In this document: positions 7,952 through 23,705 of the stretch, piece after piece
How positions within the stretch are numbered: position 1 is the first letter of the stretch
Layout of the letters: each line of letters begins with the position of its first letter
Source: an uncultured Mycoplasmatota bacterium
GTDB lineage: Bacteria; Bacillota_I; Bacilli_A; RF39; UBA660
Length of the DNA: 59,383 nucleotides
Direction of reading: 5' to 3'
Assembly (NCBI GenBank): GCA_900553835.1
Contig: USFF01000004.1
Coordinates: 1-59,383, forward strand
Made by a program: the position numbers and the translations under genes
The notes under the pieces: generated by a model
Seen by the model: the letters and a program-made list of their open reading frames with translations, nothing else
Database searches by the model: none
What the model was told of the DNA's origin: nothing

Positions 7952-10416
7952 AAAGACTCCTTTAATATTCCTTCTATAATATTAATCCATTTAACTTTTA
8001 CATTTTCAAATTGATAAAAATTAGATTTAAGAATAGAATTATTTCCAAGTTCACTTTTTTTATTAGTATCTAATTTTAAATAGTTTATAACTTCTTTTGC
8101 CATTTTATGTTTGTCTCTATTACGTATAATGAAACCATTTTTAGAATCAACATTTTCTAAAACACCTTCTGCTGTATCAAATGTAATAATAGGTAGTCCA
8201 AAACTCATAGCCTCAATTACTACTAAACCTAAAGATTCTTCAAATGAAGTCATCATATATAAACAAGAATTTGTCAAATACTTATTAATAAATTCTTGAG
8301 GTTTAAATCCCCATAAACTTATATTATTATTTAAGTTTTCATTATTAATAGTATCTATTAATTTATTCTTTAAAGAACCATCTCCAAAAATATTTAAATT
8401 AACCTCACTATCAACTTTTATAATTTCTTTCATTATATAAATCAAATCTTCAAAACCTTTAACTTCTTCAAGCCTACCAATAGCAATTAGATTTTTATTT
8501 TTAAGATTACTAATTTCACTTTTTTTTGGTACTCTACTTATAGCAAGTGGCAAGTATACAACTTTTTTATTTAAATACTTCCTATATTTTTTTGTCATAT
8601 AATTACTTACTGGTAAAACATAGTCTATATCTAGTTTATTTAAATTATTCATATATTTGTTACTTATATCAAATACATGTTGTTGATGAAGTGTAATTAT
8701 ATCTTCTGTTCTATATTTACTTAATATCTTACTAAACTCATATCTTGTGGATAAGATAATCTTAGCATCAGAATTTAAAATTGCCTTAATTAAAAGATTG
8801 TTTTTATTTAAAAGAATTTTTACCGCCTTATAACCTTCTTTAAAAATGTTTATAACATCAAATTTATGAACACTTTCTAAAAATACATTTCTATTTGAAA
8901 TATTATTCATTAGATAAGTGATTTTCACATTTTTATTAACATTAAAAGGTATTTCAAACTTTTGTTTATAAAGTGAAATAATTTCAACTTCATACTTTGA
9001 AGAAAGCATATTCGCTTCATTAATAATAGCATTTTCTACTCCACCATAGCCTAAATGAAGTGCCAAAATTGAAATTTTATTATTATTAATTTTTCTTTTA
9101 TTAAATAAATTAAAATCATAAAACAAATAAGCAAAATATAAAGAAACGTAAATAGATACAGCTGGAGCTAAATAAACATGTCCTGCGGTTGAACTTATGC
9201 CAATTGTCATCAAAATCATTAATAAATAAAACCATCCTGCAAATGTTAATTTATAAACTTTTTTCTTTCTTAAATTTACATAAACATAAAGAATGTAAAG
9301 AAAAGGAAACATTAGTATTAATAATCCAAATATACCCATGTGAAAAAATATATCAAGTGCATCTATTTCAATTAATTTACTAACCATACGATCATTAATT
9401 CTGTCTGTATTACTATAACCCATACCATAAAATAAATAACTTTTTTCAAAATTCTTATCAAAAATAAGATAAGTATTAAGTGCATAAACATCACGATTAC
9501 TTAAGAGCTTAGAACCAAATTTTAGTGTTTTAACAAGAAAAGTATTTTCTTGAAGAGGTTCCATATTGTTATTTAAATTTTCTTCTATTTCCCTTATTTC
9601 TTCTTGTTCTTTTTCCTGTTCTTTTGTAATTAAATCCTGCATGTTGTTAGAAGATCTTCCATTATACATAACAAAGGTTGCCACTAAAAACATTATAAAT
9701 ATTAAAAACACATTCTTATTAATTTTTTTTATTTTACATAGAGCTACTACAAAAATCATAAAGGTAACAATAACTACTCCAAACAAAGTAACTTTTGTAC
9801 CTATTAAACTAATTGTATAAAGACCCGCACTAAATAATATGACTCCTAATATTTTCTTTTCAGTAATTAATGAATACACAAAAGGAAACATTAAAAGTAA
9901 AATAGTAGAAACTTCGTTAGCAGAATAAAATAAACCTATAGAACCTGAATAATTAGGGTTATCATAAGACTTGAAATTAATATTTAAAATAGTAGGAACA
10001 GTTATAAGCAAAATGTACAAAATAAAACTAAAAATTAAAACCTTAGTCATTAATTTTTTATCAAAACCATATTCATCAAAATAATTTAGTAAAGCAAATG
10101 TCATAACAGGCATATAAATAAGTTTTAACATATAATTCATTTCAGTAAATAAATAATTAAGACTTAAAAGTTCATTGTTAAATAGAAAATAACTAATTAT
10201 ATAAAACACTATAAATATATAAAAATACTTACTTACTTTTTTATATTTACTTTTTGATAAAATTAAAACATAAAGGTATGCAAAAACAATAAGTAGTCCT
10301 TTAAATAAAGCACCTATTGATATAGTACCTGGTGCTAGCCTACTATTTAAACTAGTTGTTAAATCAATAATAGGAAGTAACATTAATATAAAATACACAA
10401 TATTATTTCTTTTCAT
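7948..10416 (-). CDS. Fusion of a polytopic Wzy/WaaL-like (O-antigen polymerase/ligase-type) membrane domain with a C-terminal GT4 glycosyltransferase
   Basis: 822 aa. Residues 1-440 hold about 10-12 TM segments with a charged loop (QEKEQEEIREIEEN). Residues 450-822 read ISILALHLGYGGVENAI ... SFEESLGLVVIEAMSFGLPIITFD, the GT4 E-x7-E type block. Confidence 0.7.
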   Translation of the reverse strand: MKRNNIVYFILMLLPIIDLTTSLNSRLAPGTISIGALFKGLLIVFAYLYVLILSKSKYKKVSKYFYIFIVFYIISYFLFNNELLSLNYLFTEMNYMLKLIYMPVMTFALLNYFDEYGFDKKLMTKVLIFSFILYILLITVPTILNINFKSYDNPNYSGSIGLFYSANEVSTILLLMFPFVYSLITEKKILGVILFSAGLYTISLIGTKVTLFGVVIVTFMIFVVALCKIKKINKNVFLIFIMFLVATFVMYNGRSSNNMQDLITKEQEKEQEEIREIEENLNNNMEPLQENTFLVKTLKFGSKLLSNRDVYALNTYLIFDKNFEKSYLFYGMGYSNTDRINDRMVSKLIEIDALDIFFHMGIFGLLILMFPFLYILYVYVNLRKKKVYKLTFAGWFYLLMILMTIGISSTAGHVYLAPAVSIYVSLYFAYLFYDFNLFNKRKINNNKISILALHLGYGGVENAIINEANMLSSKYEVEIISLYKQKFEIPFNVNKNVKITYLMNNISNRNVFLESVHKFDVINIFKEGYKAVKILLNKNNLLIKAILNSDAKIILSTRYEFSKILSKYRTEDIITLHQQHVFDISNKYMNNLNKLDIDYVLPVSNYMTKKYRKYLNKKVVYLPLAISRVPKKSEISNLKNKNLIAIGRLEEVKGFEDLIYIMKEIIKVDSEVNLNIFGDGSLKNKLIDTINNENLNNNISLWGFKPQEFINKYLTNSCLYMMTSFEESLGLVVIEAMSFGLPIITFDTAEGVLENVDSKNGFIIRNRDKHKMAKEVINYLKLDTNKKSELGNNSILKSNFYQFENVKVKWINIIEGILKESL

Positions 10417-10460
10417 ACTTTCTCACATCACATTAATATTATACCTTATTTTTCCTAAAT

Positions 10461-10486
10461 TAAAAAGCACTAATAACAATTAGTGC
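10461..10486 (-). terminator. Internal intrinsic terminator between the GT2 gene and the Wzy-GT4 gene
   Basis: The stem gcactaa/ttagtgc (10467-10473 and 10480-10486) overlaps the stop codon. A U-run follows on the minus strand, encoded by aaaaa at 10462-10466. Confidence 0.45.
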
Positions 10487-11430
10487 ATCTTAACATATAA
10501 ATCACAATAAATTTTAGTTAAAAATTTATTACTTTTAGTTAATCTTTTTGAAAAATTATATTTTTTAAGACAAGGACTATTTCTCCAATTTTTATTTAGA
10601 TTTTTTAAATAAGTAAAAGCTTTGTTAATAAAATCATTTCTATCTTTTCTAACTTTAATATATCTTTGCTGAATAGTATAATCTGTAAGTATCATAACTG
10701 CTAAATCAGTAATGGAGTCAAGTGGATGATTTGCTTTTTTTAATTCTTTAACAATAATATCTGTTATTTTTAAAATATCAAATATTCTTTTATCTCTAAC
10801 AGTAGTTTCACTATTATCATGAATAACATAATATGTTAAGCACTCATTAACCTTACCAATTTTATTTGCAGATATAAGCATTTTGACTACAAAAGGTGCA
10901 TCTTCATACTTAAGTTTTTCTTCGAATCTATTATTAACATCATCAAATAAAGTTCTTTTATAAAGTTTATTACATGGACCAAGATTAATAGTATTGATTA
11001 AATAAGGGGCATCTTTTAAATTTGTACAATCAAAATTACCAAAAGAAGCTCTAAATAAATTACCACAATCTCTATAAAAGTCACAAATAACTAAATCACA
11101 TTTATCTTTAATAGCCTTATCATACATTTTTTCACAAAAATGTATATCTAAATAATCATCAGAGTCAACGAAAGCAATATACTCACCAGTAGCAAGTTCA
11201 ATACCTTCATTTCTTGACTTACCTACACCTTTATTTTCTCTTGAAATATATTTTATTCTTTTGTCGTTAAATTCTTTAATAATCTCTTCAGAAGTATCTT
11301 TTGAACCATCATTAATTAATATAATTTCAATATCTTTAAGAGTTTGATTAACTAAAGAATCAAGACACTTTCTCAAATATTTTTCACTATTATAAACAGG
11401 AACAATTAAACTTACTTTTTTCATAGCCAC
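10480..11430 (-). CDS. Family 2 glycosyltransferase
   Basis: LIVPVYNSEKYLRKCLDSL and the DxD motif FVDSDDYL; 316 aa. Confidence 0.85.
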   Translation of the reverse strand: MAMKKVSLIVPVYNSEKYLRKCLDSLVNQTLKDIEIILINDGSKDTSEEIIKEFNDKRIKYISRENKGVGKSRNEGIELATGEYIAFVDSDDYLDIHFCEKMYDKAIKDKCDLVICDFYRDCGNLFRASFGNFDCTNLKDAPYLINTINLGPCNKLYKRTLFDDVNNRFEEKLKYEDAPFVVKMLISANKIGKVNECLTYYVIHDNSETTVRDKRIFDILKITDIIVKELKKANHPLDSITDLAVMILTDYTIQQRYIKVRKDRNDFINKAFTYLKNLNKNWRNSPCLKKYNFSKRLTKSNKFLTKIYCDLYVKMH

Positions 11431-12353
11431 CTCAAAATATAATTATAAAATACATATGCATTTAATTTTATTAAATAATTTTTAATTTTAGTTTTTAATT
11501 TATTAGATTTTAAATGATTAAAACACTTATTTTCATTTAAAATTCTTTTATACTTTCTAAAATCCTTATACTTTAATGTCGTTGAGTAATATATTAAAGA
11601 ATTATTAATAAATGAAATAATCTCTTTGCTTTCAATAGATACTAATTTGTTTTTCATAAAATTAGCTTGCTTAAGCATATCATCCATCTTTTTAATTTTT
11701 TTTAAGTAATTATCATTGTTCATCAAACTATTATCTCTCTGAACATAATTGTAACCAATATATGATATTGACTTAACTTTATCAGCTTTAGCAATAATTA
11801 AAGGAGTTAACCCATAATCTTCTGCTATACAGCCTTCCATAAATTTAAAATTATATTTATCCCAAAAGTCTTTTTTATAGCAATACAACCAAGAATTTTC
11901 GATGAAATGATACCTGTTAATATATTTAAAAGCATTTACTCCATCACAAATATCAAAACCTACTTCAGCATAATTGATTACATTATCTTCAAATATTTCA
12001 CGTGTTTGAAATCTTAATATATCAGGACTTTCAGAAAGATTATTATTAAGAGTTTCAAGTAAATTATTTTCAAAATAATCATCTCCATCTAAAAATAATA
12101 TATATTCACCTCTTGCTTTAGCAAGGCCTAGATTCCTTGCTTTGGAAAGCCCTGTATTCTCTTCATAAATTTTAGTCCATTTGTATTTGTTAATAAATTT
12201 ATCTGCAATTATTTCACTATTATCAGAGGATTTATCACACACTACAATCACTTCATAATTGTTATATGTTTGTTTAACAATTGATTCTAAGCATCTTTTT
12301 AAATATTTTTCAACATTATAAACTGGCACTATTATACTAAATTTATTTTTCAT
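11421..12353 (-). CDS. Family 2 glycosyltransferase
   Basis: IIVPVYNVEKYLKRCLESI and FLDGDDYF; 310 aa. It overlaps both neighbouring genes by about 10 nt. Confidence 0.85.
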   Translation of the reverse strand: MKNKFSIIVPVYNVEKYLKRCLESIVKQTYNNYEVIVVCDKSSDNSEIIADKFINKYKWTKIYEENTGLSKARNLGLAKARGEYILFLDGDDYFENNLLETLNNNLSESPDILRFQTREIFEDNVINYAEVGFDICDGVNAFKYINRYHFIENSWLYCYKKDFWDKYNFKFMEGCIAEDYGLTPLIIAKADKVKSISYIGYNYVQRDNSLMNNDNYLKKIKKMDDMLKQANFMKNKLVSIESKEIISFINNSLIYYSTTLKYKDFRKYKRILNENKCFNHLKSNKLKTKIKNYLIKLNAYVFYNYILRWL

Positions 12354-15300
12354 CTATAAATTCCTTTATTAGGTCTGCAACTTGCATAAGTTTTGAAGAA
12401 AAATCATTTTTATAATTTGTACAATCAACATCCAGCAGTTCTTTTAAAGAATCATCTAACTTACTAACGTCTTTATCTAAAAATACAACATATTTATTAT
12501 CCTTTAACATATCTGTAAATTCTTTAAGCTTTTGATTATAAGAACTTATAACTATACAAGGTGTATTAGTCATTAAAGAGAAAATTAAACCATGTAACCT
12601 ATCAGTAACAACTACTTTAGATTTTGCAAATTCTTTTAGTTGATTTTGTAAAACATAATTTCTTAATATTTTACTTATATCTCCAGTATATAAATTATTA
12701 GTAAATTTATAATCCTTATCAAACTTTTTAATAGTTGTACGAATTAAATTGTATTTTTCGTCATCAAGACCACTTTCATCATCAAGGTCCCTTAAACAGC
12801 ACAAAATGCCTTCTCTATCATAGCCAAAGGAATAATTTAAATTTAAAGCCATATCAAAGTTACAATAACTAGGAACATTTTCAAATTTCTTTTTAGCATA
12901 TTCTAAAGACATTTCGCCTCTAGTAAATAAAACTAATTTCTTGTGAGAAGTATAGGCCTTTTGACTTAATTTTAATTCTTCGCCACCATCACTTTCGCTA
13001 AAGTAAATAGTTTGTGGTAATATAAAAATCTTATTATTAGGATAAGATAAAATTATTTCTCTGCGAAGTCTTTCTTCACTGAGCCATTTATCTCCTAAAT
13101 TACCTCCACCTTGCATGAAAATGATATCATCAGGATTTATAATCTTTTGTAAATATTTCATTTTATCATTTATTTCGAATGTAGAAATTTCTATAAGTAT
13201 ATATTCACTAAAATATTTTCTTATAAATTCAAAAGTCCCACATGTTATAGCAACATCGCCAATATTTGAGTGCTCACTAGTTCCAATTAAGAATAATTTC
13301 TTCTTAAAATATAAATTGTTATATTTATTTTCCAATAAAAAGTATTCATCATCTATATTTCTATTTTCATTATTTATGACTTCTTCTTCACTTTTATTAA
13401 GTATTTTTTCTTTTAAATCGTTATGTATTAATTCGTTTTTTTCATCAATTTTCTTAATATAAGAACTAAATTCTCTAAAACTATCTTTTAAATTTAGCAC
13501 TTCTCTTTCAACTTCCCATTTTTTAGAATCAGCCATTTCATTTAATCGAGTTAAAAATGGGTTAGAAATAACATGTAAAATTTTCTTAATTCCTCTTTTA
13601 AATATATTGCGTCTAGTTTTCTTTTTCTTGTTTCTTTTGCTAATTTCTTTATAAGATCTATATATTTCATAATCGCTAAATCTACTAACTATATTAAAAT
13701 CAATTTTACTTAATAATTTATTAATCATTGATACTACTAATTTATAGTTATCTTTTTTATCACTTACATAGAAAGAAAAATCATTAATAATAAAGTTAAT
13801 CAAAGTTTTATATTCGATAGCATAATGCTCATATAAATCGCTTTTCTTAAATATGTCTAATATTTCTTCAATTGAAGTAAGTGTATCCTTAATTCCTACA
13901 AAGGATAATTTTCTTTCTTTATTTACTTGACGATATAAATAGACATCCATATTTAATCCATAAAATTCTTTAGCTTCAGTCATAACTTTAACAAAGAAAA
14001 GTGGATCTTCATAATTTCTATAAGCAGGATATTTTATATTATTATCTTTTATAATTCTAGAATTAAATAAAAATCTAGTACTCCCCCAAGAAGGCCATAC
14101 ATTATATTCTGAGTAAGAATATTTTTTATTACTTTCAACATTAAAACCACTATACCATGCTCTGTTTTTATCAAAACAATAATATCTTTGAGAGTCATCA
14201 ACCACTTTAATATTACCACAAACAGCATTAACTTTTTCATTTATTGCAGTAGTGTATAGCGTTTCAAGTACATCATTACTAGCATACATATCATCAGGAT
14301 CCATAAAACATATGAACTCTCCTTTAGACTTTTCTATTCCATGATTTCTTGACAAACCTGCACCCATATTCTTTTCATTTGTATAAAGTGAGATTCTTCT
14401 ATCAAATTCCATATATTTCTTAATTGTATTAACAGACTCATCATTGCCTAAATCATCAACAAAAATAATTTCTATTTCCTTAAGTGATTGGTTAATAATT
14501 GATATAATACAATCATCTATATACTTTTCAACATTATAAACTGGTATAATAATACTAACTTTTGGATTTAAAACTTTTTCATGCTTAGTAATATTAAATT
14601 CTTCTGGTTTATCATAATTAATTCTCTTAAGTAAAGTTTCATAAAAATCTTGAGGCATATTTATCTTTACTAAATCTAAAAGTTCATCTCTATGTAAAGT
14701 CATCTTAAAGTAGCGCCACATAAATTCATTCATTGCATATTTATAAAAACTATCTAAAAGTTCGCTAGATACATTGTTTTGAGTTAACATAGTTTCTATT
14801 AATTTTAAAATATTAACTATATCTAAAATATTGCGATTATTAAATTTAGAAGCTTGTAATGAGTTGTCTCTATTTATACGATAATATAAAAGATGCTCAT
14901 TTAAAAGTGAAATAGCTTTTGCTTTTATCAAACATTCATAATAGAATGAATTATCTTCATATCTTAAATTCTCAGGAAATAAAATGTTATTCTTTTTAAG
15001 AAATTCTAAGTTATAAAGTTTACACCAAGCAGTAACCGGTGATTCCGAAGTGATAACATCAGTAGTTTTAATTTTTTTATAATTAAATGGTTCTTTAAAA
15101 AGACTCTTATCAAAAGATAAATTATATCCCCATAAATTCTTTTTAACTTTTTTAAGTGATTCATCATAAGAATAAAATGGGAAAATTACCATATCAGCCT
15201 TATCATTTTCAGCTTTCAAATAAAGTTTTGATATTGCATCAAGCGCAATATAATCGTCACTGTCTAAAAAGAAAATATATTTTCCATCCGCATATTTTAT

Positions 15301-15531
15301 ACCTTCATTTCTAGCACCACCTAGACCTCCATCATTTCTATAAATAATTTCAATTCTTGTATCATTTTCTTTCCATTTCTTTAAAATATTAAGAGATTTA
15401 TCTTTTGATTCAGTAAATACACAAAGAATTTGTAAATTCTTATATGTTTGATTGCAAACACTTTCTAAACATTCGTCAAGATATTTTTCAGTGTTAAAAA
15501 CAGGAATTATAACAGTTATTTTATCATTCAT
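12343..15531 (-). CDS. Three-domain enzyme: GT2 + GT2 + polysaccharide pyruvyl transferase (CsaB/PssM-type)
   Basis: 1062 aa. Domain 1: VIIPVFNTEKYLDECLESV ... FLDSDDYI. Domain 2: IIIPVYNVEKYIDDCIISI ... FMDPDDMY. A basic, coiled linker follows. Domain 3: IGTSEHSNIGDVAI ... MQGGGNLGDKW ... VVTDRLHGLIFS, the pyruvyl-transferase blocks. Confidence 0.8.
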   Translation of the reverse strand: MNDKITVIIPVFNTEKYLDECLESVCNQTYKNLQILCVFTESKDKSLNILKKWKENDTRIEIIYRNDGGLGGARNEGIKYADGKYIFFLDSDDYIALDAISKLYLKAENDKADMVIFPFYSYDESLKKVKKNLWGYNLSFDKSLFKEPFNYKKIKTTDVITSESPVTAWCKLYNLEFLKKNNILFPENLRYEDNSFYYECLIKAKAISLLNEHLLYYRINRDNSLQASKFNNRNILDIVNILKLIETMLTQNNVSSELLDSFYKYAMNEFMWRYFKMTLHRDELLDLVKINMPQDFYETLLKRINYDKPEEFNITKHEKVLNPKVSIIIPVYNVEKYIDDCIISIINQSLKEIEIIFVDDLGNDESVNTIKKYMEFDRRISLYTNEKNMGAGLSRNHGIEKSKGEFICFMDPDDMYASNDVLETLYTTAINEKVNAVCGNIKVVDDSQRYYCFDKNRAWYSGFNVESNKKYSYSEYNVWPSWGSTRFLFNSRIIKDNNIKYPAYRNYEDPLFFVKVMTEAKEFYGLNMDVYLYRQVNKERKLSFVGIKDTLTSIEEILDIFKKSDLYEHYAIEYKTLINFIINDFSFYVSDKKDNYKLVVSMINKLLSKIDFNIVSRFSDYEIYRSYKEISKRNKKKKTRRNIFKRGIKKILHVISNPFLTRLNEMADSKKWEVEREVLNLKDSFREFSSYIKKIDEKNELIHNDLKEKILNKSEEEVINNENRNIDDEYFLLENKYNNLYFKKKLFLIGTSEHSNIGDVAITCGTFEFIRKYFSEYILIEISTFEINDKMKYLQKIINPDDIIFMQGGGNLGDKWLSEERLRREIILSYPNNKIFILPQTIYFSESDGGEELKLSQKAYTSHKKLVLFTRGEMSLEYAKKKFENVPSYCNFDMALNLNYSFGYDREGILCCLRDLDDESGLDDEKYNLIRTTIKKFDKDYKFTNNLYTGDISKILRNYVLQNQLKEFAKSKVVVTDRLHGLIFSLMTNTPCIVISSYNQKLKEFTDMLKDNKYVVFLDKDVSKLDDSLKELLDVDCTNYKNDFSSKLMQVADLIKEFIDEK

Positions 15532-15547
15532 TTTTTATCCTCCATTT

Positions 15548-17113
15548 TTATTTAATTTTAACAAACATTAGCTCATCATCTTTTTTTGAATAGCAATCTT
15601 TCTTTATTATTTTACCATTAAATTCTATTTCGCATACTCCACGCCATTTATTTTTTTCAAAAACTAGAACAAGCTTATTAGAATATGGTACTAACATATC
15701 GACACTGTTACTAATAGGCTTTAATAAATCATAGTTTCTCCAACCAATAGAGTTATTTCTTGATAACCATTTTCCCCTAATTAGTTCATTAGCGTTATAC
15801 CAATTGTTATCTACTAAAGCACCAACTAACCATATTTCTTCACCTTGAGCTTTGGGATTTCTCATATTAAGTGCCTTTAGTTTTATGTTCATACCTTCAT
15901 TTAAAGGAACTTTATTAAATTCAGTATTAAATATCCAGTAATATTTTTTTGGTATTTTATTATAATAATTTTTTATTTCTTGCCTAGCTTCAACTATGTC
16001 AACAAAAGGCGCTTTATCATTTTTAAGTTTTTTAATTAACTTATAAGTATAATTTTTAAATTCTTTTCCAGTCTTTCCCCTTACCTTTTTATTAATTAAA
16101 TTTTTTCTAAAAGAAGAATACTCTTTATTATTATCTTTTAGTTTCTGGTGCATAATATTCTTCATACTAGGAGAAAGCCACTTCGCCACACTTCTATCTC
16201 TTAATTCATCAAAACTGCCTAAATCAACTTCAGGAATTACACCTAGTGCTAAAAAAGCATGACCAGCATAACAATATGGATACTTACAATTCTTCCCTAC
16301 ACATTCAAATTTTAATGGTTTATCATATTCAAATATATTCCCAAGGCATTTATCACCAAAACATTTAGTTATTTCACCAGTTTTTAAATTAACACAAAAA
16401 CTCCAATCCCCAGCATAACAAAATTCTATTCTTCTAACTTGCCAAATTTTCTTTCTAAAATCAAATAATTTTGAATCAAATTTTTCCCATTTATTTGTTA
16501 ACTCATCCATATCAAATTCAGAAAGTAAATCAAGACCAGCTTTTCTATCATCTCTTAATATCGTAATATGGGGCTTTGCACCAAATTTATTTTCACAAAG
16601 TTCTATAATTTCTTCTTGATAAGGTATATAATCATCAGAAGCAGCTAATTCAACAGTAAAAGAAATACCACTATCTTTCATTAATTCTACATTCTTAACA
16701 AAAGCATCTAATAAATTCATTTTTTTAAGTTCTAAATAATGAAAAGAAAACTTAATAAATAATCTATCTTTTAAGTCACTTGAAAAATTAGACATTTCTT
16801 CAAATCTCTTACTAATTGTACCATTTGTAACTATCATTAAATAATGTCCACACTCTAGTAAAGCACGTATAATATCAGTCATAACAGGAGATAAAAGTGT
16901 TTCACCTCCGGCACAAAAATTAATTAAACATACCCCTCCAAGTCTCTCTTTAGAAAAAGCTTTTTTTAAATCATCTATACTATGATCAAATTCAAATAAT
17001 TTACCATTAAATTTTCTATTTTGAGTAATATAACAATAACCACACCTTAAATTACATGTTTCAGTAGGTACAAATATATCAATAAATCTCTTTAACTTAT
17101 CCATTAAAACCAC
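15548..17113 (-). CDS. Radical SAM enzyme with a SPASM/twitch-like Cys-rich region and an extra C-terminal domain of about 150 aa
   Basis: CNLRCGYCY (CxxxCxxC), the GGE-type motif CAGGETLLSP, and a second Cys cluster CYAGDWSFCVNLKTGEITKCFGDKC ... CVGKNCKYPYCYAGHAF. The C-terminal tail has no motif I recognise. The start may be the ATG at 17104. Confidence 0.8.
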   Translation of the reverse strand: MVLMDKLKRFIDIFVPTETCNLRCGYCYITQNRKFNGKLFEFDHSIDDLKKAFSKERLGGVCLINFCAGGETLLSPVMTDIIRALLECGHYLMIVTNGTISKRFEEMSNFSSDLKDRLFIKFSFHYLELKKMNLLDAFVKNVELMKDSGISFTVELAASDDYIPYQEEIIELCENKFGAKPHITILRDDRKAGLDLLSEFDMDELTNKWEKFDSKLFDFRKKIWQVRRIEFCYAGDWSFCVNLKTGEITKCFGDKCLGNIFEYDKPLKFECVGKNCKYPYCYAGHAFLALGVIPEVDLGSFDELRDRSVAKWLSPSMKNIMHQKLKDNNKEYSSFRKNLINKKVRGKTGKEFKNYTYKLIKKLKNDKAPFVDIVEARQEIKNYYNKIPKKYYWIFNTEFNKVPLNEGMNIKLKALNMRNPKAQGEEIWLVGALVDNNWYNANELIRGKWLSRNNSIGWRNYDLLKPISNSVDMLVPYSNKLVLVFEKNKWRGVCEIEFNGKIIKKDCYSKKDDELMFVKIK

Positions 17114-18143
17114 TCCTCTTAACTACTTTTTTTCTTTTACTAAGAAATAAAGATAATACTAATGTTGATAAAAGTACATAAACAAACATTCTAAAACTTT
17201 TTTCTCTAATCCAACTTATTATGCTATTAGTACCATATATTTGACTATAAGAAATTCTATCAAGAAAATGAAATAAATATATAAATATATAGTGATAAAA
17301 GAATAAATACTTCGATAAATTTCTAAATCTAAGTGAGTTAATTTTCAATTTAACATTTAATCTGGATAATAATGAAAAAAGGAAAACAACCACAATAGGT
17401 GTAAAAATAAAGTAATCATACTCATTATAAAGTAAACTATAATTATAAAACAAACCGGTTTCAATTAATAATAATACTTGACTAGTTATTAAAATAAGCA
17501 AAAGTTTAAAATTGGTTAGTTTATTAAAAAAATTACACTTATACATAAAGTATCCAATAAATGGGTACATAATTGTAAAAAGAAAATATCTATTTGAAGT
17601 AAACAACTTATCGAGAAAATTAATAAATATTTCATAGTTTGTTCCAACAAAAACATATTTATATGTTGTAAATGATAAACCAACTAAATATCCTATGATA
17701 CTTATGTAAAAAATAATTTTCAATTTTCTATCATCCTTTATATAACAAATTAACAATGTAAAAACAAGAAGCACACCTAAATACCACATTATATTTGTGG
17801 AAGTTAAAGTGAATACGTGAATTATATCTTGAATTAAATTAGAATAATTAAAATCCCAAACCACAAATATATTATATATAAGAGTATAAAGCAAACACCA
17901 AAATATATACTTTTTAATTATTTTAATAAGTCTATTTCTATTATTTCCTTGACTGGTATCATTGTTTTTCGCAAGAAAGTATCCATTACAAATAAAGAAA
18001 AAGGGAACAGCAAGTCTATATATATTTGTATTAATATAATACCCAATTTTATATTCAGATAAAAATTGGGTATGTATACCAATAACGCATATAGCAAAAA
18101 ATAATTTTGCTAAATCAATTAATTGATAGTTATTTTTTTTCAT
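17097..18143 (-). CDS. Acyltransferase family 3 membrane O-acyltransferase
   Basis: 348 aa with about 10 TM segments. The N-terminal block LAKLFFAICVIGIHT and RLAVPFFFICNGYF are typical of acyltransferase_3 proteins. Confidence 0.7.
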   Translation of the reverse strand: MKKNNYQLIDLAKLFFAICVIGIHTQFLSEYKIGYYINTNIYRLAVPFFFICNGYFLAKNNDTSQGNNRNRLIKIIKKYIFWCLLYTLIYNIFVVWDFNYSNLIQDIIHVFTLTSTNIMWYLGVLLVFTLLICYIKDDRKLKIIFYISIIGYLVGLSFTTYKYVFVGTNYEIFINFLDKLFTSNRYFLFTIMYPFIGYFMYKCNFFNKLTNFKLLLILITSQVLLLIETGLFYNYSLLYNEYDYFIFTPIVVVFLFSLLSRLNVKLKINSLRFRNLSKYLFFYHYIFIYLFHFLDRISYSQIYGTNSIISWIREKSFRMFVYVLLSTLVLSLFLSKRKKVVKRSGFNG

Positions 18144-18148
18144 AGCAA

Positions 18149-18757
18149 TTAATGTTTATCGTTAATATTTTTACCAGTTATTTCATTTTTAGTTAAATAA
18201 TTGTAGAATATTTTCATCATCATATGATCAAAAGTCATATGTATGTCTTCATCTATTTGCATATCACATTCGTCTACATGCATCTTATAATCTGCTAATT
18301 CTTTTAATTTGCCACCTTTATAACCAGTAATTCCTACAACTTTAGCTCCACATTCTTTAGCATATACGGCTGCGTTTACTACATTTTTGGAATTACCACT
18401 TCCACTTATGCCAATAAATAAATCATTACTAGTGATTTTATTTAATAAAGGGAATCTAAATACCTCTTCATAACCAATATCATTTGCAACTGCCATCATT
18501 GTTGAAACATTGTCATTTAAGCAATAGAAGTTAAATTTCTTATCAGTATATTCACTTATTCCTTTATTAAAATCATTTTGCATATGACTTGCAGTAGAAG
18601 CACTTCCACCATTACCACATACGTAGATGGTTCCGCCATTTTCATATGTTTTTAATAAAGCGTTCATAGCTTCATTAATTTCATCTAAATTCAAATTTTT
18701 TATAACCTTAATTTCTCTCTCATAATATTCATTAATAGCATTTTTAAAATCTATCAT
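18149..18757 (-). CDS. gmhA: D-sedoheptulose-7-phosphate isomerase (SIS domain)
   Basis: VCGNGGSASTASHMQNDF and GISGSGNSKNV SIS motifs; 202 aa. Its start overlaps the upstream stop in an ATGA arrangement, and it sits among heptose-pathway genes. Confidence 0.8.
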   Translation of the reverse strand: MIDFKNAINEYYEREIKVIKNLNLDEINEAMNALLKTYENGGTIYVCGNGGSASTASHMQNDFNKGISEYTDKKFNFYCLNDNVSTMMAVANDIGYEEVFRFPLLNKITSNDLFIGISGSGNSKNVVNAAVYAKECGAKVVGITGYKGGKLKELADYKMHVDECDMQIDEDIHMTFDHMMMKIFYNYLTKNEITGKNINDKH

Positions 18758-20076
18758 AAACTTTTACCTCTTTCTTTAATTAATATTTTATTTATAGCAT
18801 CTAGTAAATCTTCTGCTATTATATCAGGATTTATTTCATACTTGCCATCTAATCCCTTTTGGCCTGTATTTACTAGAACACTTTTAATACCAGCATTCTC
18901 AGCCATTTTAATATCTAAAGTTGAATCTCCTATCATTATAGATTCATTTAAATCTATATTATAATCAATAGATGCTTTTTTTATCATACCTGTATTAGGT
19001 TTTCTACAATCGCACTTTATTTTAAGTTCAGGAACTTCTCCTTCAAAACCTTTATCCGGATGATGTGGACAATAATATAAACCATCTATATATGCTCCTT
19101 CATTACCTAAAAGTGTTTCCATATGTTTATGTATTTCACTCAAACTATCAAGTGTACATTCACCTCTAGCAATAATAGGCTGATTAGTAACAACAATACA
19201 TAAATATTCACTACTATTAATTTTTCTTATTGCTTCACTTACTCCAGGAATAAGTTTAAAGTTTTCTTTTTGAGATAAGAATGGTACATACTCATTTATA
19301 GTTCCATCTCTATCCAAAAAAATTGCTTTCTGCTTGTGAGATAAATTTCTATGCTCGCATAAACCATTTGAATAATCTTCATTAACAGCATTAAATCTTT
19401 CAGGTGTACCCATATCTTTTACATATTCGGTTGAATGATATGAATATACATTATCTCCACTTAAAATCATATTTGCTATTACATCTTTCTCTAATCCATA
19501 TTTCTTTGGCTCATTTACATAATCAAATATTTTAGTTGAAAAACAATATATTCCTGAGTTAACTAAATTATTATAATCATAATCTCTAGTATTATCTTTG
19601 GAATCAAAAGATAATACTTTACCCATTTCATTTACTACTACTAAATCACTGTCAAAAGGATGCGAATTAGGATGTGTAAGTAAAGTAGCATCAGATTTTT
19701 TTTCTTTATGATACTTAATCATGCGATTAAAATCTACACTTAAAAAAACATCTCCAAAAATTAGTATAAAGTCCTCATTAATTTTATCTTTTAGATAGTA
19801 TAAAGAACCAGCCGTTCCTAAAGGTTTATCCGGATTTTCTTCATAATATGAAATGTTAATTCCAATATTATCTCCATTTTCGAAATATTCTTTAATTTTA
19901 TTACCTAAATGTCCTGTAACGATGATTACTTCATTTACACCACTTTTCTTCAAACAATCAATTTGATGTTCAAGTATTGGTTTATTACCTACCGTTAACA
20001 TAGGTTTAGGTATCTCATCATTAGTTATAGAAGAAATTCTAGTTCCCTTACCTCCAGCCATTATAACTGCCTTCAA
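18754..20076 (-). CDS. Bifunctional D-glycero-alpha-D-manno-heptose-1-phosphate guanylyltransferase / D,D-heptose-1,7-bisphosphate phosphatase (HddC-GmhB fusion)
   Basis: The N-terminal nucleotidyltransferase shows IMAGGKGTRI ... KPMLTVGNKPILE. The C-terminal HAD-IIIA domain shows FLDRDGTIN, CPHHPD...CDCRKPNTGM (Zn site) and MIGDSTLD. Confidence 0.8.
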   Translation of the reverse strand: MKAVIMAGGKGTRISSITNDEIPKPMLTVGNKPILEHQIDCLKKSGVNEVIIVTGHLGNKIKEYFENGDNIGINISYYEENPDKPLGTAGSLYYLKDKINEDFILIFGDVFLSVDFNRMIKYHKEKKSDATLLTHPNSHPFDSDLVVVNEMGKVLSFDSKDNTRDYDYNNLVNSGIYCFSTKIFDYVNEPKKYGLEKDVIANMILSGDNVYSYHSTEYVKDMGTPERFNAVNEDYSNGLCEHRNLSHKQKAIFLDRDGTINEYVPFLSQKENFKLIPGVSEAIRKINSSEYLCIVVTNQPIIARGECTLDSLSEIHKHMETLLGNEGAYIDGLYYCPHHPDKGFEGEVPELKIKCDCRKPNTGMIKKASIDYNIDLNESIMIGDSTLDIKMAENAGIKSVLVNTGQKGLDGKYEINPDIIAEDLLDAINKILIKERGKSL

Positions 20077-20184
20077 TAACTACACCTCACTTTTCTACAT
20101 AATAATTTTAACAAATATTTACAGATAAGTAAACTAAATCAATAGAAAAAATTGCCTTTATAAGCAATTTTCTATAAAAAATGT

Positions 20185-21132
20185 CTAATTATGCTCTTTT
20201 ATATATCTAGCAGTATCTCTAACAGACTCATCAGAAGTATGTTTTGCACTCCAACCTTTATCATGTATTTTACTTAAATCATACTGAAATTTAGGAACAT
20301 CACCTTTCCAACCAATATTACCACCAGTATAATTATACTTAACATTACTATAACCAAGTTCTTCACAAACTATATTAGCAATTGTTGTAACACTGGTTGC
20401 AGTTTCAACACCTGCATTATAAACTTCTACACCCTTCTTAATATCCATATCTAATGTAAACATAGTTATTGCTTCCACTAAATCAGTTACATATAAGTAA
20501 GGTTTAGTTTGAGTTCCATCTCCTAATATTTCAAGTTCATTTGGATTATTTCTAAGTTTTTTTACGAAATCATAAATAACACCATGAGTTAAATTAGGTC
20601 CAATTACGTTTGGAAATCTAAATATAACTGTATTTAAATCATTCATAAATGTATATGATGAAATAAATCCTTCACTTGCATACTTTGCTCCCCCATAATA
20701 TGATATAGGTTTTAAGTCACCTAAATTTTCTGTTAATAACATTTGTTTATCACCATAGATAGCAGATGTTGATGAAAAGAACAAGTTTTTAATATTGTTT
20801 CTCCTCATTAATTCAAGAACACTATAAGTAGTCATAAAAGTATCATTAAAGTCAACACTAGGCATTCTTCCTCCCTTTTGAATATCCGAATTTGCTGCTA
20901 AATGATAAACTATATCAAACTTTTCATCTTTTAGTGTATCACAAAAATTTTCAGTATCTTCAATATTAATGTTATAGAATTTATAATTAGCGTTTTCACT
21001 AAAACAATCAACATTTTCTTTATGTCCTAGTGTAAAATTATCAACTACAACTACTTCTAAACCTCTTTCTAATAAATTTCTTACTAAATGAGTACCGATA
21101 AATCCGGCACCTCCTGTTACTAATGCTTTCAC
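20185..21132 (-). CDS. NAD-dependent sugar-nucleotide epimerase/dehydratase (extended SDR)
   Basis: VTGGAGFIGTHL Rossmann motif and the YGGAKYASE (YxxxK) catalytic motif; 315 aa. Confidence 0.85.
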   Translation of the reverse strand: MKALVTGGAGFIGTHLVRNLLERGLEVVVVDNFTLGHKENVDCFSENANYKFYNINIEDTENFCDTLKDEKFDIVYHLAANSDIQKGGRMPSVDFNDTFMTTYSVLELMRRNNIKNLFFSSTSAIYGDKQMLLTENLGDLKPISYYGGAKYASEGFISSYTFMNDLNTVIFRFPNVIGPNLTHGVIYDFVKKLRNNPNELEILGDGTQTKPYLYVTDLVEAITMFTLDMDIKKGVEVYNAGVETATSVTTIANIVCEELGYSNVKYNYTGGNIGWKGDVPKFQYDLSKIHDKGWSAKHTSDESVRDTARYIKEHN

Positions 21133-21143
21133 TATTACTCCTC

Positions 21144-22121
21144 CTAATTTACAAATATTACTGTAGTACCTTGATGATCAAATTTAAATTCCATTTCAGG
21201 TAATTCTTTCATTTCTTTTCTAAAGTTTTCTTGTTTTTCTTCTGGTACATAGAATAAGAAGAAACCACTTCCACCAGCACCTAAAAGTTTACCACCAGTA
21301 GCACCAGCTTTTATACCCATTTCATACCACTTGTCAAACTGTGGGTTACTAATTCCAGATGCTAAAGTTCTTTTAATTTTCCAGTTTTCATCAAGTATTT
21401 TTCCTACAGCATCTATATTGTTGTGTTCAAGTTCATATTTCAAATCATAAGTCATTTCCATTATTTTCTTTTGACCCTCTTCTTTATCTTGAGCACTAAC
21501 AATGTTTTTTGATTGTTCTTCTAGTATTTCTGATGCTTTATGTTCACCACCAACATAAAGCATAATTAAATTCTTTTCAAGTTGTTTAAATGCTTCCTGG
21601 TCCATTAAGACTGGCTCAACATCTACTGATCCATCCTTGTTAAATTTGTAAAAATTAAGCCCACCAAAAGCAGCAGCATACTGATCTTGTTTACCATTTG
21701 TGGTATGTACTATATTATTTTCCATATTACATGCTGATGCAGCCACATCCGCTTTTGAAATATATTCTCTTTTGTAGCATTTCAAGTTTTTAATTAATCC
21801 GACTGTGAATGAACTTGAAGAACCAAGCCCAGTACCTGATGGTACATCTGCAATAGAAGTAATTTCTAGTCCTTGTAAATTCTCTTGTTTTAAACATTCT
21901 CTAAAAATATTATGTTCAATATCATTAATATCATGGACAGTTTCAGTTTTAGAGTATTTAAGTACTGTTGTATCTTTATCAAATGATGGATGTGATGTTA
22001 TATACATATATTTATTAATAGTAGTGCTAAGTACACATCCTCCATGTTTCTCATAAAATGACTTAATATCACTTCCTCCACCACATAAACTAACTCTAAA
22101 AGGTGTTCTAGTTATAACCAT
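21144..22121 (-). CDS. hddA: GHMP-family sugar kinase, probable D-glycero-alpha-D-manno-heptose-7-phosphate kinase
   Basis: TPFRVSLCGGGSDI N-terminus and the GHMP motif PSGTGLGSSSSF; 325 aa. It lies in context with gmhA and hddC-gmhB. Confidence 0.75.
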   Translation of the reverse strand: MVITRTPFRVSLCGGGSDIKSFYEKHGGCVLSTTINKYMYITSHPSFDKDTTVLKYSKTETVHDINDIEHNIFRECLKQENLQGLEITSIADVPSGTGLGSSSSFTVGLIKNLKCYKREYISKADVAASACNMENNIVHTTNGKQDQYAAAFGGLNFYKFNKDGSVDVEPVLMDQEAFKQLEKNLIMLYVGGEHKASEILEEQSKNIVSAQDKEEGQKKIMEMTYDLKYELEHNNIDAVGKILDENWKIKRTLASGISNPQFDKWYEMGIKAGATGGKLLGAGGSGFFLFYVPEEKQENFRKEMKELPEMEFKFDHQGTTVIFVN

Positions 22122-22125
22122 AATT

Positions 22126-22887
22126 TCACTCCCTTCCTTTTTTGGTTATATTTTGTTTTTCATAATATGCCTTACATACATTTTTAGTATCGCCTATCAT
22201 AACAATCTCTCCATGGTCAAGCCATACAACCTTATTACATAATTCTTCTATAGATTCAAGTGAATGTGAAACGTATAAAACGGTTGTTCCGCCTTTAATC
22301 ATTGACATCATTTTATTTTTACTTTTTTCTTGAAACTTAATATCTCCAACTGATAAAATTTCATCAACAATTAAAATTTCTGGGTCCACAACAGTAGATA
22401 TAGAAAATGCAAGTTTAGCAACCATACCAGAAGAAAAATTCTTAACAGGTACATCTAAAAAATCTTTCAGTTCTGAAAAATCTACTATTTCATTAAATTT
22501 AGAATCTATAAATTCCTTACTATATCCTAAAATTGCTCCGTTTAGATAAATATTTTCTCTGGCTGTTAATTCTCCATCAAATCCAGCACCTAATTCAATC
22601 ATAGGTGATATTGCTCCGTTAACAGTTACAGTTCCTTCAGTAGGTTTCATAACGCCACTTACAACTTTAAGCAAGGTACTTTTACCAGCTCCATTAGAAC
22701 CAATTAAACCTACAACATCTCCTCTATCTACATGAAAACTTACATGTCTTAATGCCCAAAAATCACTTTTCTTTTTTCTTTTCGATTTATCAAATAAACT
22801 TATAAAAACCATTTTAAATGAATTATCTTTTTCGACTCCGAGGTTAAACCTCATTCCAACATTATTTAAATATATCATATTCTTCAC
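22126..22887 (-). CDS. Polysaccharide/teichoic-acid export ABC transporter ATP-binding protein (TagH/Wzt-like, no C-terminal carbohydrate-binding domain)
   Basis: Walker A GSNGAGKST, signature FSSGMVAKLAFS and Walker B ILIVDEILSVGD; 253 aa. Confidence 0.85.
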   Translation of the reverse strand: MKNMIYLNNVGMRFNLGVEKDNSFKMVFISLFDKSKRKKKSDFWALRHVSFHVDRGDVVGLIGSNGAGKSTLLKVVSGVMKPTEGTVTVNGAISPMIELGAGFDGELTARENIYLNGAILGYSKEFIDSKFNEIVDFSELKDFLDVPVKNFSSGMVAKLAFSISTVVDPEILIVDEILSVGDIKFQEKSKNKMMSMIKGGTTVLYVSHSLESIEELCNKVVWLDHGEIVMIGDTKNVCKAYYEKQNITKKGRE

Positions 22888-22889
22888 CC

Positions 22890-23705
22890 CTACATATAAT
22901 AAACAAATTTATCTTGTCTTTTTCTAAAAATATGTAATCCTATAAACAACATTAATGCTCCGCTTGCAAGACATGCTAATAAATATACTAAAGATGGTGG
23001 TGTTGAATATAATAATATTTCCCTTGAAGCATTAATATATAGATAAAGCGGATTTAATTTAAAGATTGTTTGAAGTTTTTCAGGTAATATAGTTAAACTA
23101 TAAAACAATGGTGTAAAATAGTTGAGTATAGTAAGCATTATACCCCACATATAAATCATATCTCTTAAAAATACCGAAACTGTTGCAAGTATATAACCAA
23201 CACCTACAGTAAACATAAATGCACATAAGTATATAAATGGTAATAATAAATAATAAATATTAATGTAGCATTTAGTCCCATCAGCAACACTTCCTGAAAA
23301 CCATGTTATTAAAAATAACGGAATTAAAGTAAACAAGAAATTAATTCCCGCAAACAAACATTTAGCTATAGGGAAAATATATTTTGGAATGTACACCTTA
23401 TTAATTAATGATGAATTACCTATAATCGCAGCCATTGCATTATTAGTAGCATCACTAAAATAATTAAACACAACAAGCCCGCTCATCAAATAAACTAAAT
23501 AATTAACACCTTCCATACTAAATTTAAACATATTTGAAAATACAATAGCCATTACCATCATCATTAGTAATGGATAAAGCACACTCCATAGTACTCCAAG
23601 TACACTTCTTTTATATTTAACTTTAAAATCTCTAATAACTAATTGAGATAATAAAAATTTATACTTTTTAACATTATACATTATATTTTTAAAAGTCTTT
23701 GTCAT
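22890..23705 (-). CDS. ABC-2 type polysaccharide export permease (TagG/Wzm-like)
   Basis: 271 aa with six TM segments. The N-terminal block LVIRDFKVKYKRSVLGVLWSVL is typical of ABC-2 permeases. It lies directly upstream of the ATPase. Confidence 0.85.
   Translation of the reverse strand: MTKTFKNIMYNVKKYKFLLSQLVIRDFKVKYKRSVLGVLWSVLYPLLMMMVMAIVFSNMFKFSMEGVNYLVYLMSGLVVFNYFSDATNNAMAAIIGNSSLINKVYIPKYIFPIAKCLFAGINFLFTLIPLFLITWFSGSVADGTKCYINIYYLLLPFIYLCAFMFTVGVGYILATVSVFLRDMIYMWGIMLTILNYFTPLFYSLTILPEKLQTIFKLNPLYLYINASREILLYSTPPSLVYLLACLASGALMLFIGLHIFRKRQDKFVYYM

Follow-up and report, generated by a model that had tools for sequence, protein, structure and literature searches.

Pyruvylation is a common, charge-conferring change of bacterial surface glycans, generally taken to require a single PEP-dependent transferase. 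Canonical pyruvate ketals require no redox partner. The modification is immunologically important, as seen for Klebsiella pneumoniae O1b, Bacteroides fragilis PSA and S-layer anchoring. Pvg1p, CsaB and the K. pneumoniae O1b enzyme WbbZ are characterised transferases of the PF04230 (PS_pyruv_trans) family, and we know of no characterised member with a radical SAM partner. WbbZ illustrates that a glycan made by an ABC-transporter-dependent pathway can carry pyruvate as its terminal modification (PMC10629545).

Among radical SAM enzymes of the twitch/SPASM type, the cytosylglucuronate decarboxylase BlsE (PDB 7VOB), BtrN and DesII act on carbohydrates. Common to them are a partial TIM-barrel core with CX3CX2C close to its N-terminal end, the GGE motif and a beta-hairpin extension at the C-terminus.

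To our knowledge, the only characterised pairing in which a PEP-derived group is first placed on a sugar and then reworked by a radical SAM enzyme is that of NikO/PolA with NikJ/PolH. In octosyl acid biosynthesis, the enolpyruvyl transferase NikO/PolA is followed by the radical SAM C–C cyclase NikJ/PolH (PMC5365060). PolH acts on 3'-enolpyruvyl-UMP, a precedent for a radical SAM enzyme working on the enolpyruvyl ether of a sugar (PMC5365060).

The radical SAM protein described here resembles the BlsE-type enzymes in its core, its two motifs and its hairpin, and they include its best fold matches; its substrate, too, is probably a carbohydrate. It differs from them in its own cysteine pattern (CX13GX4C...CX4C, plus C59 and C64), in an identity of about 15% and in scores below the curated cutoffs. 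Its partners are a pyruvyltransferase and GT2 glycosyltransferases, its likely substrate would be a lipid-linked polymer rather than a nucleotide or aminocyclitol, and its long form carries an additional beta-sandwich.

A radical SAM gene in a polysaccharide operon

The gene lies in a 59,383-nucleotide stretch of DNA from an uncultured Mycoplasmatota bacterium, here called the window. The operon comprises the following features:

7948–12353, minus strand: two GT2 genes and an O-antigen-ligase-like::GT4 fusion, the remainder of the operon (Pfam)
12343–15531, minus strand: GT2-GT2-PS_pyruv_trans fusion protein, 1062 aa (Pfam)
15548–17104, minus strand: radical SAM gene, long form, 518 aa plus stop (ORF and translation)
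17097–18143, minus strand: Acyl_transf_3 (AT3) membrane acyltransferase, 348 aa, devoid of the domain X described below (Pfam, sequence)
17113–17117, minus strand: Shine-Dalgarno sequence AGGAG, 8 nt upstream of the ATG at 17104 (sequence read)
18149–22121, minus strand: GDP-D-glycero-D-manno-heptose supply genes, namely GmhA, an HddC-GmhB fusion, an SDR epimerase and HddA (Pfam, NCBIfam)
22126–23705, minus strand: the polysaccharide ABC exporter Wzt (253 aa, devoid of a Wzt_C domain) and Wzm (Pfam ABC_tran, ABC2_membrane)

The reading frame initially delimited as 15548–17113 exists on the minus strand, the plus-strand reading being stop-ridden, but its listed GTG start (17111–17113) falls inside or beside the AGGAG sequence. 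Translation almost certainly begins at the ATG of position 17104, since the homologues all begin with MDK or MEK and the Shine-Dalgarno sequence is suitably placed upstream of this codon. The overlap with the stop of the acyltransferase gene is thus 8 nt (sequence ATGGATAA) and not 17 as first annotated, whereas the 16-nt spacing to the GT2-GT2-pyruvyltransferase gene was correctly given. The gene is indeed embedded in a tightly packed polysaccharide operon, with flanking gaps of at most 16 nt. No compositional trace of recent transfer was detected, GC content staying flat at about 25%, though the gene is absent from the genomes of all 40 relatives. The pyruvyltransferase co-varies with it, being missing from 39 of these 40; the remaining one has it without the radical SAM gene. 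Beyond these relatives, a single one of 400 other genomes from the phylum has a member of the radical SAM family.

All the motifs quoted in the initial annotation are found in the translation. The Pfam Radical_SAM model (PF04055) scores 36.8 bits against a gathering cutoff of 29.5, and a homology search returned 1,418 homologues (best E=0), far more than chance would give. Judged by its sequence, the protein is a genuine radical SAM enzyme of a large family. A search of contigs with the single protein gave only an unrelated 26% match. Human gut metagenome assemblies are the source of many of the related contigs. Most members are about 365 aa long (short form), with a core of about 340 aa. The long form seen here is a single clade in the tree, about 50% identical to the short form, and every conserved residue is common to both. 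The elements of the long-form protein are:

17033–17056, minus strand: CX3CX2C (C17, C21, C24), predicted radical SAM [4Fe-4S] ligands, at least 99% conserved in 164 sequences (PF04055)
16895–16915, minus strand: C64-AGGETL, GGE SAM-binding motif and preceding conserved cysteine (conservation in 164 sequences)
16271–16420, minus strand: twitch-like auxiliary-cluster region, C229-X13-G243-X4-C248 ... C273-X4-C278 (cysteine conservation, Foldseek neighbours)
15929–16114, minus strand: basic helical linker, aa 331–392, with no TM-like segment (AF2 secondary structure)
15551–15928, minus strand: beta-sandwich domain X, aa ~393–518, a putative glycan-binding module (AF2, pLDDT 90.9)

Counted from the ATG, CNLRCGYCY corresponds to aa 17–25 and CAGGETL to aa 64–70. 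In the 164 distinct homologues aligned, C64 and G67 are 99% conserved, E68 100% and C59, near the GGE motif, 95%; R184, R302 and K118 are invariant. The second cysteine-rich stretch, FCYAGDWSFCVNLKTGEITKCFGDKC...ECVGKNCKYPYCY (aa 228–279), had been taken as suggestive of auxiliary Fe-S clusters. Four of its seven cysteines (C229, C248, C273, C278) are each at least 99% conserved, but C237, C253 and C268 are kept in fewer than 10% of the homologues, and the spacing fits a single cluster. The motif cysteines are thus retained in orthologues, nine in all, at 95% to at least 99%, and the window protein has all nine together with an adjacent PF04230 gene, the combination (adjacent or fused) that marks the family.

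The assignment as radical SAM stands, but the qualifier “SPASM-like” was too generous. No Pfam match to the SPASM model is obtained, and the NCBIfam SPASM maturase models all score far under their cutoffs. The full SPASM pattern, CX9-15GX4C–gap–CX2CX5CX3C–gap–C, has seven cysteines for two auxiliary clusters; only its CX9-15GX4C element is found, the second element being CX4C (C273, C278) and not CX2CX5CX3C. The cysteine spacing fits a one-cluster twitch domain instead, as in BtrN, MoaA and SkfB, where a CX9-15GX4C beta-hairpin and further cysteines provide three to four ligands: C229, C248, C273 and C278 show this arrangement, and the AF2 model has strands at 235–239, 244–246 and 253–256 close by. 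We infer that these four cysteines bind an auxiliary cluster.

The AF2 model (pLDDT about 90) displays the partial TIM-barrel fold. When it was compared with the PDB by Foldseek, 56 matches were obtained at E<=1e-3, the best 50 of which are all radical SAM enzymes. The nearest characterised enzymes, which the initial annotation had suggested looking for, are SPASM/twitch enzymes such as BlsE, SuiB, SkfB, MoaA, anSME and BtrN. BlsE, a sugar-acid decarboxylase, comes first (E 3.4e-8, TM 0.59 on target), and the top neighbours have TM-scores of 0.4–0.6 at about 15% identity. In NCBIfam all curated radical SAM families score far under their cutoffs, for instance BlsE (TIGR04466, 21.6 vs 400 bits), viperin (NF038283, 43.9 vs 180) and the STM4011 radical SAM family (NF038073, 32.8 vs 200), and sequence searches of the PDB with the single protein and with the family profile gave no significant match. 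The protein has no close curated family or solved structure, BlsE being the nearest fold.

The pyruvyltransferase partner and the proposed reaction

Gene neighbourhoods were compared across 40 non-redundant loci for which each flank spans 3 kb or more. A PF04230 gene is present in all 40, of which 39 were checked directly and one was inferred from a sister locus. It lies on the same strand as the radical SAM gene within 100 bp in 29 loci and within 5 kb in 36. In the remaining four, the adjacent PF04230 gene was missed by the HMM; Pfam reveals it in L048, L101 and L111, and the gene arrangement of L063 matches that of L048. A GT2 gene is found within 5 kb in 39 of the 40 loci. Gene fusions point in the same direction: radical SAM::pyruvyltransferase fusions are single ORFs of 780–813 aa with at least three independent origins on the tree, one protein (P0038) is a radical SAM::GT2 fusion, and GT2::pyruvyltransferase fusions occur in the window and in L007, L009, L026, L032 and L048. 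The window pyruvyltransferase domain (12346–13311) scores 99.4 bits against a PS_pyruv_trans cutoff of 25.3 and matches Pvg1p (5AX7) with E 1.5e-11, the GGGNxGD and TDRLH stretches being aligned. It thus belongs to the same family as Pvg1p, CsaB and WbbZ, but differs from the characterised members by its invariable and at times fused radical SAM partner. This presence in all loci, together with the fusions, indicates that the conserved functional partner of the radical SAM protein is the pyruvyltransferase and not the heptose pathway. Because it always stands beside a sugar-pyruvylating enzyme, the radical SAM protein probably makes an undescribed pyruvate-derived decoration. Literature searches on radical SAM enzymes with a pyruvyltransferase or Wzt, and on the glycan chemistry of Lachnospira eligens or Butyrivibrio, returned no relevant paper.

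We consider it about an even bet (probability roughly 0.5) that a twitch-type radical SAM unit works with the GT2-GT2-pyruvyltransferase to modify a PEP-derived substituent on a lipid-linked surface glycan. The cytoplasmic radical SAM enzyme would hold one SAM cluster and one auxiliary [4Fe-4S] cluster bound by four cysteines. The GT2 domain or domains would add the acceptor sugar, to which the PF04230 domain would attach the three carbons derived from PEP, forming either an enolpyruvyl ether or a pyruvate ketal. The 5'-deoxyadenosyl radical would then abstract a hydrogen on or beside the pyruvyl substituent, leading to a non-canonical carboxylated decoration. Radical tailoring of this substituent, or of its carrier sugar, is the most likely activity. 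We would favour a chemistry in which the radical attacks the double bond of the enolpyruvyl group, resulting either in C–C ring closure of the PolH/NikJ kind or, by net reduction, in a lactyl ether, decarboxylation being the next option. A C–C-bridged bicyclic carboxy-sugar and a lactyl (1-carboxyethyl) ether are thus the candidate decorations. The auxiliary cluster would take up the surplus electron, and a hydrogen atom may come from C64 or C59.

The logic proposed here, in which a sugar hydroxyl first receives an enolpyruvyl ether from PEP and a radical SAM enzyme then acts on it, is that of NikO/PolA and NikJ/PolH. PolH may nevertheless serve as a mechanistic analogy only, the architecture being different: NikO/PolA is MurA-like and not a PF04230 protein, and PolH has its cluster motif at residues 225–232, a single cluster and UMP, not a glycan, as the substrate backbone. 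The lack of any need for a redox partner in canonical ketal formation, and the relative that has a pyruvyltransferase but no radical SAM gene, also weigh against the proposal.

A strictly chain-terminating role of the radical SAM, pyruvyltransferase and GT2 triad, as a cap in ABC-dependent pathways, was also considered and rejected for the family: only 11 of the 40 loci have a Wzt NBD within 7 kb, and L101 and the L. eligens locus are of the Wzx type. In short-form loci, a Wzt with Wzt_C often lies directly beside the radical SAM gene. At the locus of this window the triad may still act as such a cap.

Other orders and other substrates

Synteny is silent on step order and chemistry, and the association of the three genes is equally compatible with the radical SAM enzyme acting before the pyruvyltransferase. 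It would then be a NeoN/BtrN-like radical epimerase or dehydrogenase, remodelling the acceptor sugar of the lipid-linked glycan to allow the ketal to be built. BtrN, a twitch dehydrogenase acting on sugars, is among the Foldseek matches, and C59 and C64, which are conserved outside the clusters, could be hydrogen-atom donors as in radical epimerases. This order is nonetheless unlikely: epimers and keto-sugars are normally made at the nucleotide-sugar level, the loci already carry SDR epimerases, and repeated fusion with the pyruvyltransferase suggests a direct hand-over of its product or of an intermediate, even if fusion leaves the direction unproven.

The position of BlsE as best fold match, and its appearance in sequence searches, raise the question of a radical decarboxylase that would strip the carboxylate from the pyruvate ketal or from a uronic acid of the glycan; the invariant R184, R302 and K118 could bind such a carboxylate. 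Considering the low score of the NCBIfam BlsE model, an identity of about 16% and the almost equally good scores of SPASM/twitch enzymes of other chemistries, we regard this activity as quite improbable.

GDP-heptose had been put forward as a substrate in the initial annotation, and the enzyme could in principle act on heptose or GDP-heptose by C-methylation, deoxygenation or epimerisation. The GmhA/HddA/HddC-GmhB heptose genes indeed adjoin all six long-form clusters, which come from a single clade. Yet heptose genes are lacking from all 34 short-form clusters, despite their close relationship and full set of conserved residues, which makes heptose unlikely as the family-wide substrate; the universal partner is the pyruvyltransferase, and no cobalamin or methyltransferase domain is found in the radical SAM protein. 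A heptose-directed reaction is accordingly very unlikely.

A RiPP maturase, cofactor enzyme or glycyl-radical activase placed by chance in a glycan operon, to which weak NCBIfam matches (sactipeptide/SPASM maturases, NrdG2) and the label “organic radical activating enzyme” given to a homologue by one source might point, has a negligible probability, since these matches are far below cutoffs, no precursor-sized ORF is present near the gene (its flanks being an 8-nt overlap and 16 nt), and glycan-gene synteny is found in every locus examined, with the pyruvyltransferase invariably present and fusions to it or to GT2 in some.

The C-terminal module and what the family may bring

The tail of about 150 residues starting at ...KNYTYKLIKK, as first delineated, is real and consists in the AF2 model of a helical linker and a beta domain. 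It had been left unassigned; we now describe it as an un-curated beta-sandwich module that is mobile and carried mainly by AT3 acyltransferases. This domain X, the last ~125 residues, gives no Pfam match at E<=1 and no fold match in the PDB by Foldseek (best E 0.034). Its homologues amount to 119 domains, mainly in AT3, PMT_2 and radical SAM proteins; among 76 multi-domain carriers, 38 are AT3 and 7 PMT_2 proteins. In 69 membrane-protein carriers, domain X is bracketed by TM segments with K/R-rich far sides, which predicts a location on the outer face of the membrane in the AT3 and GT-C-like carriers. The radical SAM protein has no TM segment and acquired the domain once, in a heptose-locus clade.

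Its outer-face location in AT3 and GT-C-like proteins suggests that domain X is probably a glycan-binding module, for which the exported glycan, present on both membrane faces, is the obvious ligand. No likeness to known carbohydrate-binding modules is detectable, and C2/PLAT-like sandwiches that bind membranes are among the weak Foldseek matches (E above 0.03), so that the domain could bind membrane rather than glycan. In the radical SAM protein it would hold the heptose-containing polymer or its lipid-linked end, giving the soluble enzyme access to it before Wzm/Wzt export. Long-form loci have a short Wzt and short-form loci a Wzt with Wzt_C, hence the idea that domain X replaces Wzt_C (PF14524); this was rejected (hhalign probability 0.2%, no fold match). 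Wzt_C and the AT3 accessory domains, such as the SGNH domain of OafA/OatA, are likewise beta-rich accessory modules on glycan export or tailoring enzymes; however, domain X is not homologous to Wzt_C and lies N-terminal to AT3, whereas SGNH is C-terminal. The combined proposal, that the triad makes a pyruvate-derived decoration either not seen before or without an assigned biosynthetic route, and that domain X represents a new carbohydrate-binding module family reading the same polymer on both membrane faces (the cytoplasmic one in the radical SAM protein, the extracytoplasmic one in AT3 and GT-C enzymes), is offered as tentative and less likely than not. Domain X is in any case a separate lead, as an un-curated domain family carried by many O-acyltransferases.

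The constant presence of the radical SAM gene beside one transferase clade, with repeated fusion, implies a chemistry beyond the simple ketal, in a family of more than 1,400 members that is unstudied. If the proposal is true, a radical SAM enzyme would for the first time be shown to work on a polysaccharide or a lipid-linked glycan, and not on a nucleotide sugar or a small molecule; such a chemistry, once found, would be a new reaction type for both radical SAM enzymology and glycan biosynthesis. The question is directly testable, since the family is present in a cultured type strain, L. eligens ATCC 27750 (gene EUBELI_RS11775), and the answer could explain unassigned acidic substituents in the polysaccharides of commensals.

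Association with polysaccharide pyruvyltransferases

The radical SAM protein of the window (rSAM) belongs to a family encoded beside polysaccharide pyruvyltransferases (PvT; PS_pyruv_trans, PF04230). Loci were taken from assemblies, reference genomes and metagenome contigs and annotated with HMMs built for this analysis; the 95 loci formed 67 clusters at 80% identity, in 40 of which each flank spans 3 kb or more. A same-strand PvT gene lies within 100 bp of rSAM in 29 of these 40 and within 5 kb in 36, and the other four carry a directly adjacent divergent PF04230 gene, identified by Pfam in L048, L101 and L111 and inferred for L063 from its identical layout to L048. In all, PvT is present in 40/40 loci (39 checked directly) and GT2 lies within 5 kb in 39/40. 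Single-ORF rSAM::PvT fusions of 780-813 aa (L064-L072, L081, L088, L091-L093, L097 and L102) need at least three origins on the maximum-likelihood tree of the core, GT2::PvT fusions are common, one of them lying in the window, and one rSAM homologue is fused to GT2. Taken together, the synteny and the rSAM::PvT and GT2::PvT fusions suggest that rSAM, PvT and GT2 behave as one functional unit. No paper connecting radical SAM enzymes with polysaccharide pyruvyltransferases was found in the literature. In locus L028 (G467:C3, 5332-14341), the rSAM-PvT pair is surrounded by genes for two sulfotransferases, a nitroreductase-family protein and a Wzz-like protein, and the product may be a sulfated, pyruvate-modified glycan.

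Genes of the window operon, in order (minus strand)
Genes 1-2: Wzm and Wzt (Wzt 253 aa, without a Wzt_C domain; Pfam/NCBIfam)
After Wzm/Wzt: HddA, an SDR epimerase, HddC::GmhB (18754-20076; nucleotidyltransferase::heptose-bisphosphate phosphatase fusion, 440 aa), GmhA
After GmhA: acyltransferase Acyl_transf_3 (AT3), then rSAM (15548-17104; listed as 15548..17113), then GT2-GT2-PvT
End: two GT2 genes, then an O-antigen-ligase-like::GT4 fusion (7948-10416; 822 aa)

Since all rSAM homologues begin with MDK or MEK and an AGGAG lies 8 nt upstream of the ATG at 17104, with the listed GTG inside that Shine-Dalgarno sequence, this ATG is taken as the real start, which gives a protein of 518 aa. The overlap with the stop of the upstream AT3 gene is then 8 nt instead of the 17 nt initially annotated; the 16-nt gap to the GT2-GT2-PvT gene stands.

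The host genome is a MAG of ~0.94 Mb (68% complete, 25% GC), and human gut metagenomes contain near-identical contigs. Among 8,000 candidates scored, 1,418 rSAM homologues were retained at E<=1e-3, most of them short forms of ~365 aa (~50% identity over residues 1-340) and a few long forms of ~520 aa. The family occurs sporadically: carriers make up ~2% of 400 sampled Clostridia species and, in the phylum to which the window belongs, 1/400 other genomes. Across 40 relatives, rSAM was found in none and PvT was missing from 39; L116 (G016:C2:79560-80378), from a same-family relative that lacks rSAM, is a PvT encoded on its own, with 38% identity to the PvT domain of the window, and this PvT lineage can therefore exist without rSAM. 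Other unassigned extensions occur in family members of L048 (6977-9130), L063, L095 (6992-8923) and L100, C-terminal in proteins of 717-723 and 643 aa and N-terminal in one of 465 aa; in L048, genes for a TylF-like methyltransferase and for a Wzt-like protein of 956 aa lie downstream.

Radical SAM core and conserved cysteines

Every motif initially quoted for the ORF is present in its product. Radical_SAM is the sole Pfam match (36.8 bits), and the best NCBIfam matches, namely viperin (43.9 bits, cutoff 180), STM4011-type (32.8, cutoff 200), BlsE (21.6, cutoff 400) and NrdG2, are all far under cutoff. Neither sequence nor profile searches gave a significant PDB match, and no curated model was found for the family. 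The AF2 model, built with 80 homologues, is confident (pLDDT 90, pTM 0.85), and the Foldseek comparison suggested initially places it among SPASM/twitch enzymes, with BlsE first (E 3.4e-8), followed by SuiB, SkfB, MoaA, viperin, anSME, DesII, EpeE and BtrN, at ~15% identity and TM 0.4-0.6.

Cysteine conservation across 164 distinct rSAM homologues
C17, C21, C24, C64, C229, C248, C273, C278: >=99%
C59: 95%
C237, C253, C268: <10%

C229-X13-G243-X4-C248 matches the CX9-15GX4C hairpin of SPASM/twitch domains and the second element is only CX4C, so the region is read as a twitch-type site, predicted to bind one four-cysteine auxiliary cluster. In the second Cys-rich stretch noted initially, four cysteines are conserved, and it is not read as a SPASM domain. 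The allele P0003 (469 aa, 95% identity with the window rSAM; on 4 contigs, the longest of 192 kb) lacks 49 residues in frame, among them C229, C248 and C273 of the auxiliary-cluster hairpin, and represents either a natural loss of function or an artefact of assembly.

The C-terminal beta-sandwich

The unassigned C-terminal residues noticed initially are real, and consist of a basic helical linker (331-392) and a beta-sandwich, domain X (~393-518; pLDDT 90.9 modelled alone). Domain X has no Pfam match at E<=1, no convincing PDB fold match (best E 0.034, TM <=0.33), no curated model found, and no relationship to Wzt_C by hhalign (probability 0.2%). Scanned in full with HMMER, 1.84 billion representative proteins yielded 119 carriers. 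Among the 76 multi-domain ones, 38 are Acyl_transf_3 proteins with domain X at residues ~45-170, N-terminal to AT3, seven are PMT_2/GT-C-like and five are rSAM, the remainder being mostly without Pfam domain. Tandem arrays of 2-6 copies, each bracketed by TM helices, occur in P0122, P0129, P0204 and P0214 (some AT3, and unannotated membrane proteins).

In 69 membrane-protein carriers, hydrophobic segments flank domain X on both sides and their far sides are K/R-rich (means 3.0 and 3.3 K+R per 15 aa), which by the positive-inside rule predicts domain X outside the cell; the window rSAM has no TM-like segment. As glycan-tailoring enzymes on both membrane faces use it, domain X is most simply a putative glycan-binding module, a membrane-surface binder being the alternative. 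L009 also encodes a domain-X::AT3 protein in its rSAM operon. P0133 (834 aa) joins a long-form rSAM and domain X to a ~310-residue region with weak, below-cutoff Methyltransf_31/23 Pfam matches, and would be a three-module tailoring enzyme.

Proposed chemistry and biological setting

The window PvT domain retains the Pvg1p-like GGGNxGD and TDRLH stretches and is therefore probably a working PEP-dependent transferase. GT2 would add the acceptor sugar and PvT a PEP-derived unit, after which rSAM would convert this adduct, or the sugar carrying it, by radical chemistry; domain X of the long form may hold the polymer. To our knowledge, PolH/NikJ is the only characterised radical SAM precedent with an enolpyruvyl sugar ether as substrate (PMC5365060). 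The parallel is mechanistically attractive, but these enzymes are not homologous to the window rSAM.

Alternatively, rSAM could be a decarboxylase like BlsE, its first structural neighbour, or an epimerase/dehydrogenase working before PvT. The heptose-type substrate initially suggested is unlikely family-wide: GDP-heptose genes adjoin rSAM in 6/6 clusters of the long forms, a single clade (SH-aLRT 96), and in 0/34 short-form clusters.

A Wzt NBD is encoded within 7 kb of rSAM in only 11/40 loci and Wzx-type loci also occur; the rSAM-PvT-GT2 unit is not tied to a single export route. By analogy with WbbZ, for which terminal pyruvylation is documented in an ABC-dependent O-antigen pathway (PMC10629545), a terminal role is possible for the window locus in particular. 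[Eubacterium]/Lachnospira eligens ATCC 27750, a type strain in culture, carries EUBELI_RS11780 (PvT) and EUBELI_RS11775 (rSAM, 41.6% identical) in a Wzx/Wzy-type capsule-like locus of its 627-kb megaplasmid (L114, NC_012780.1 260568-262804), and offers a ready experimental system for the pair.
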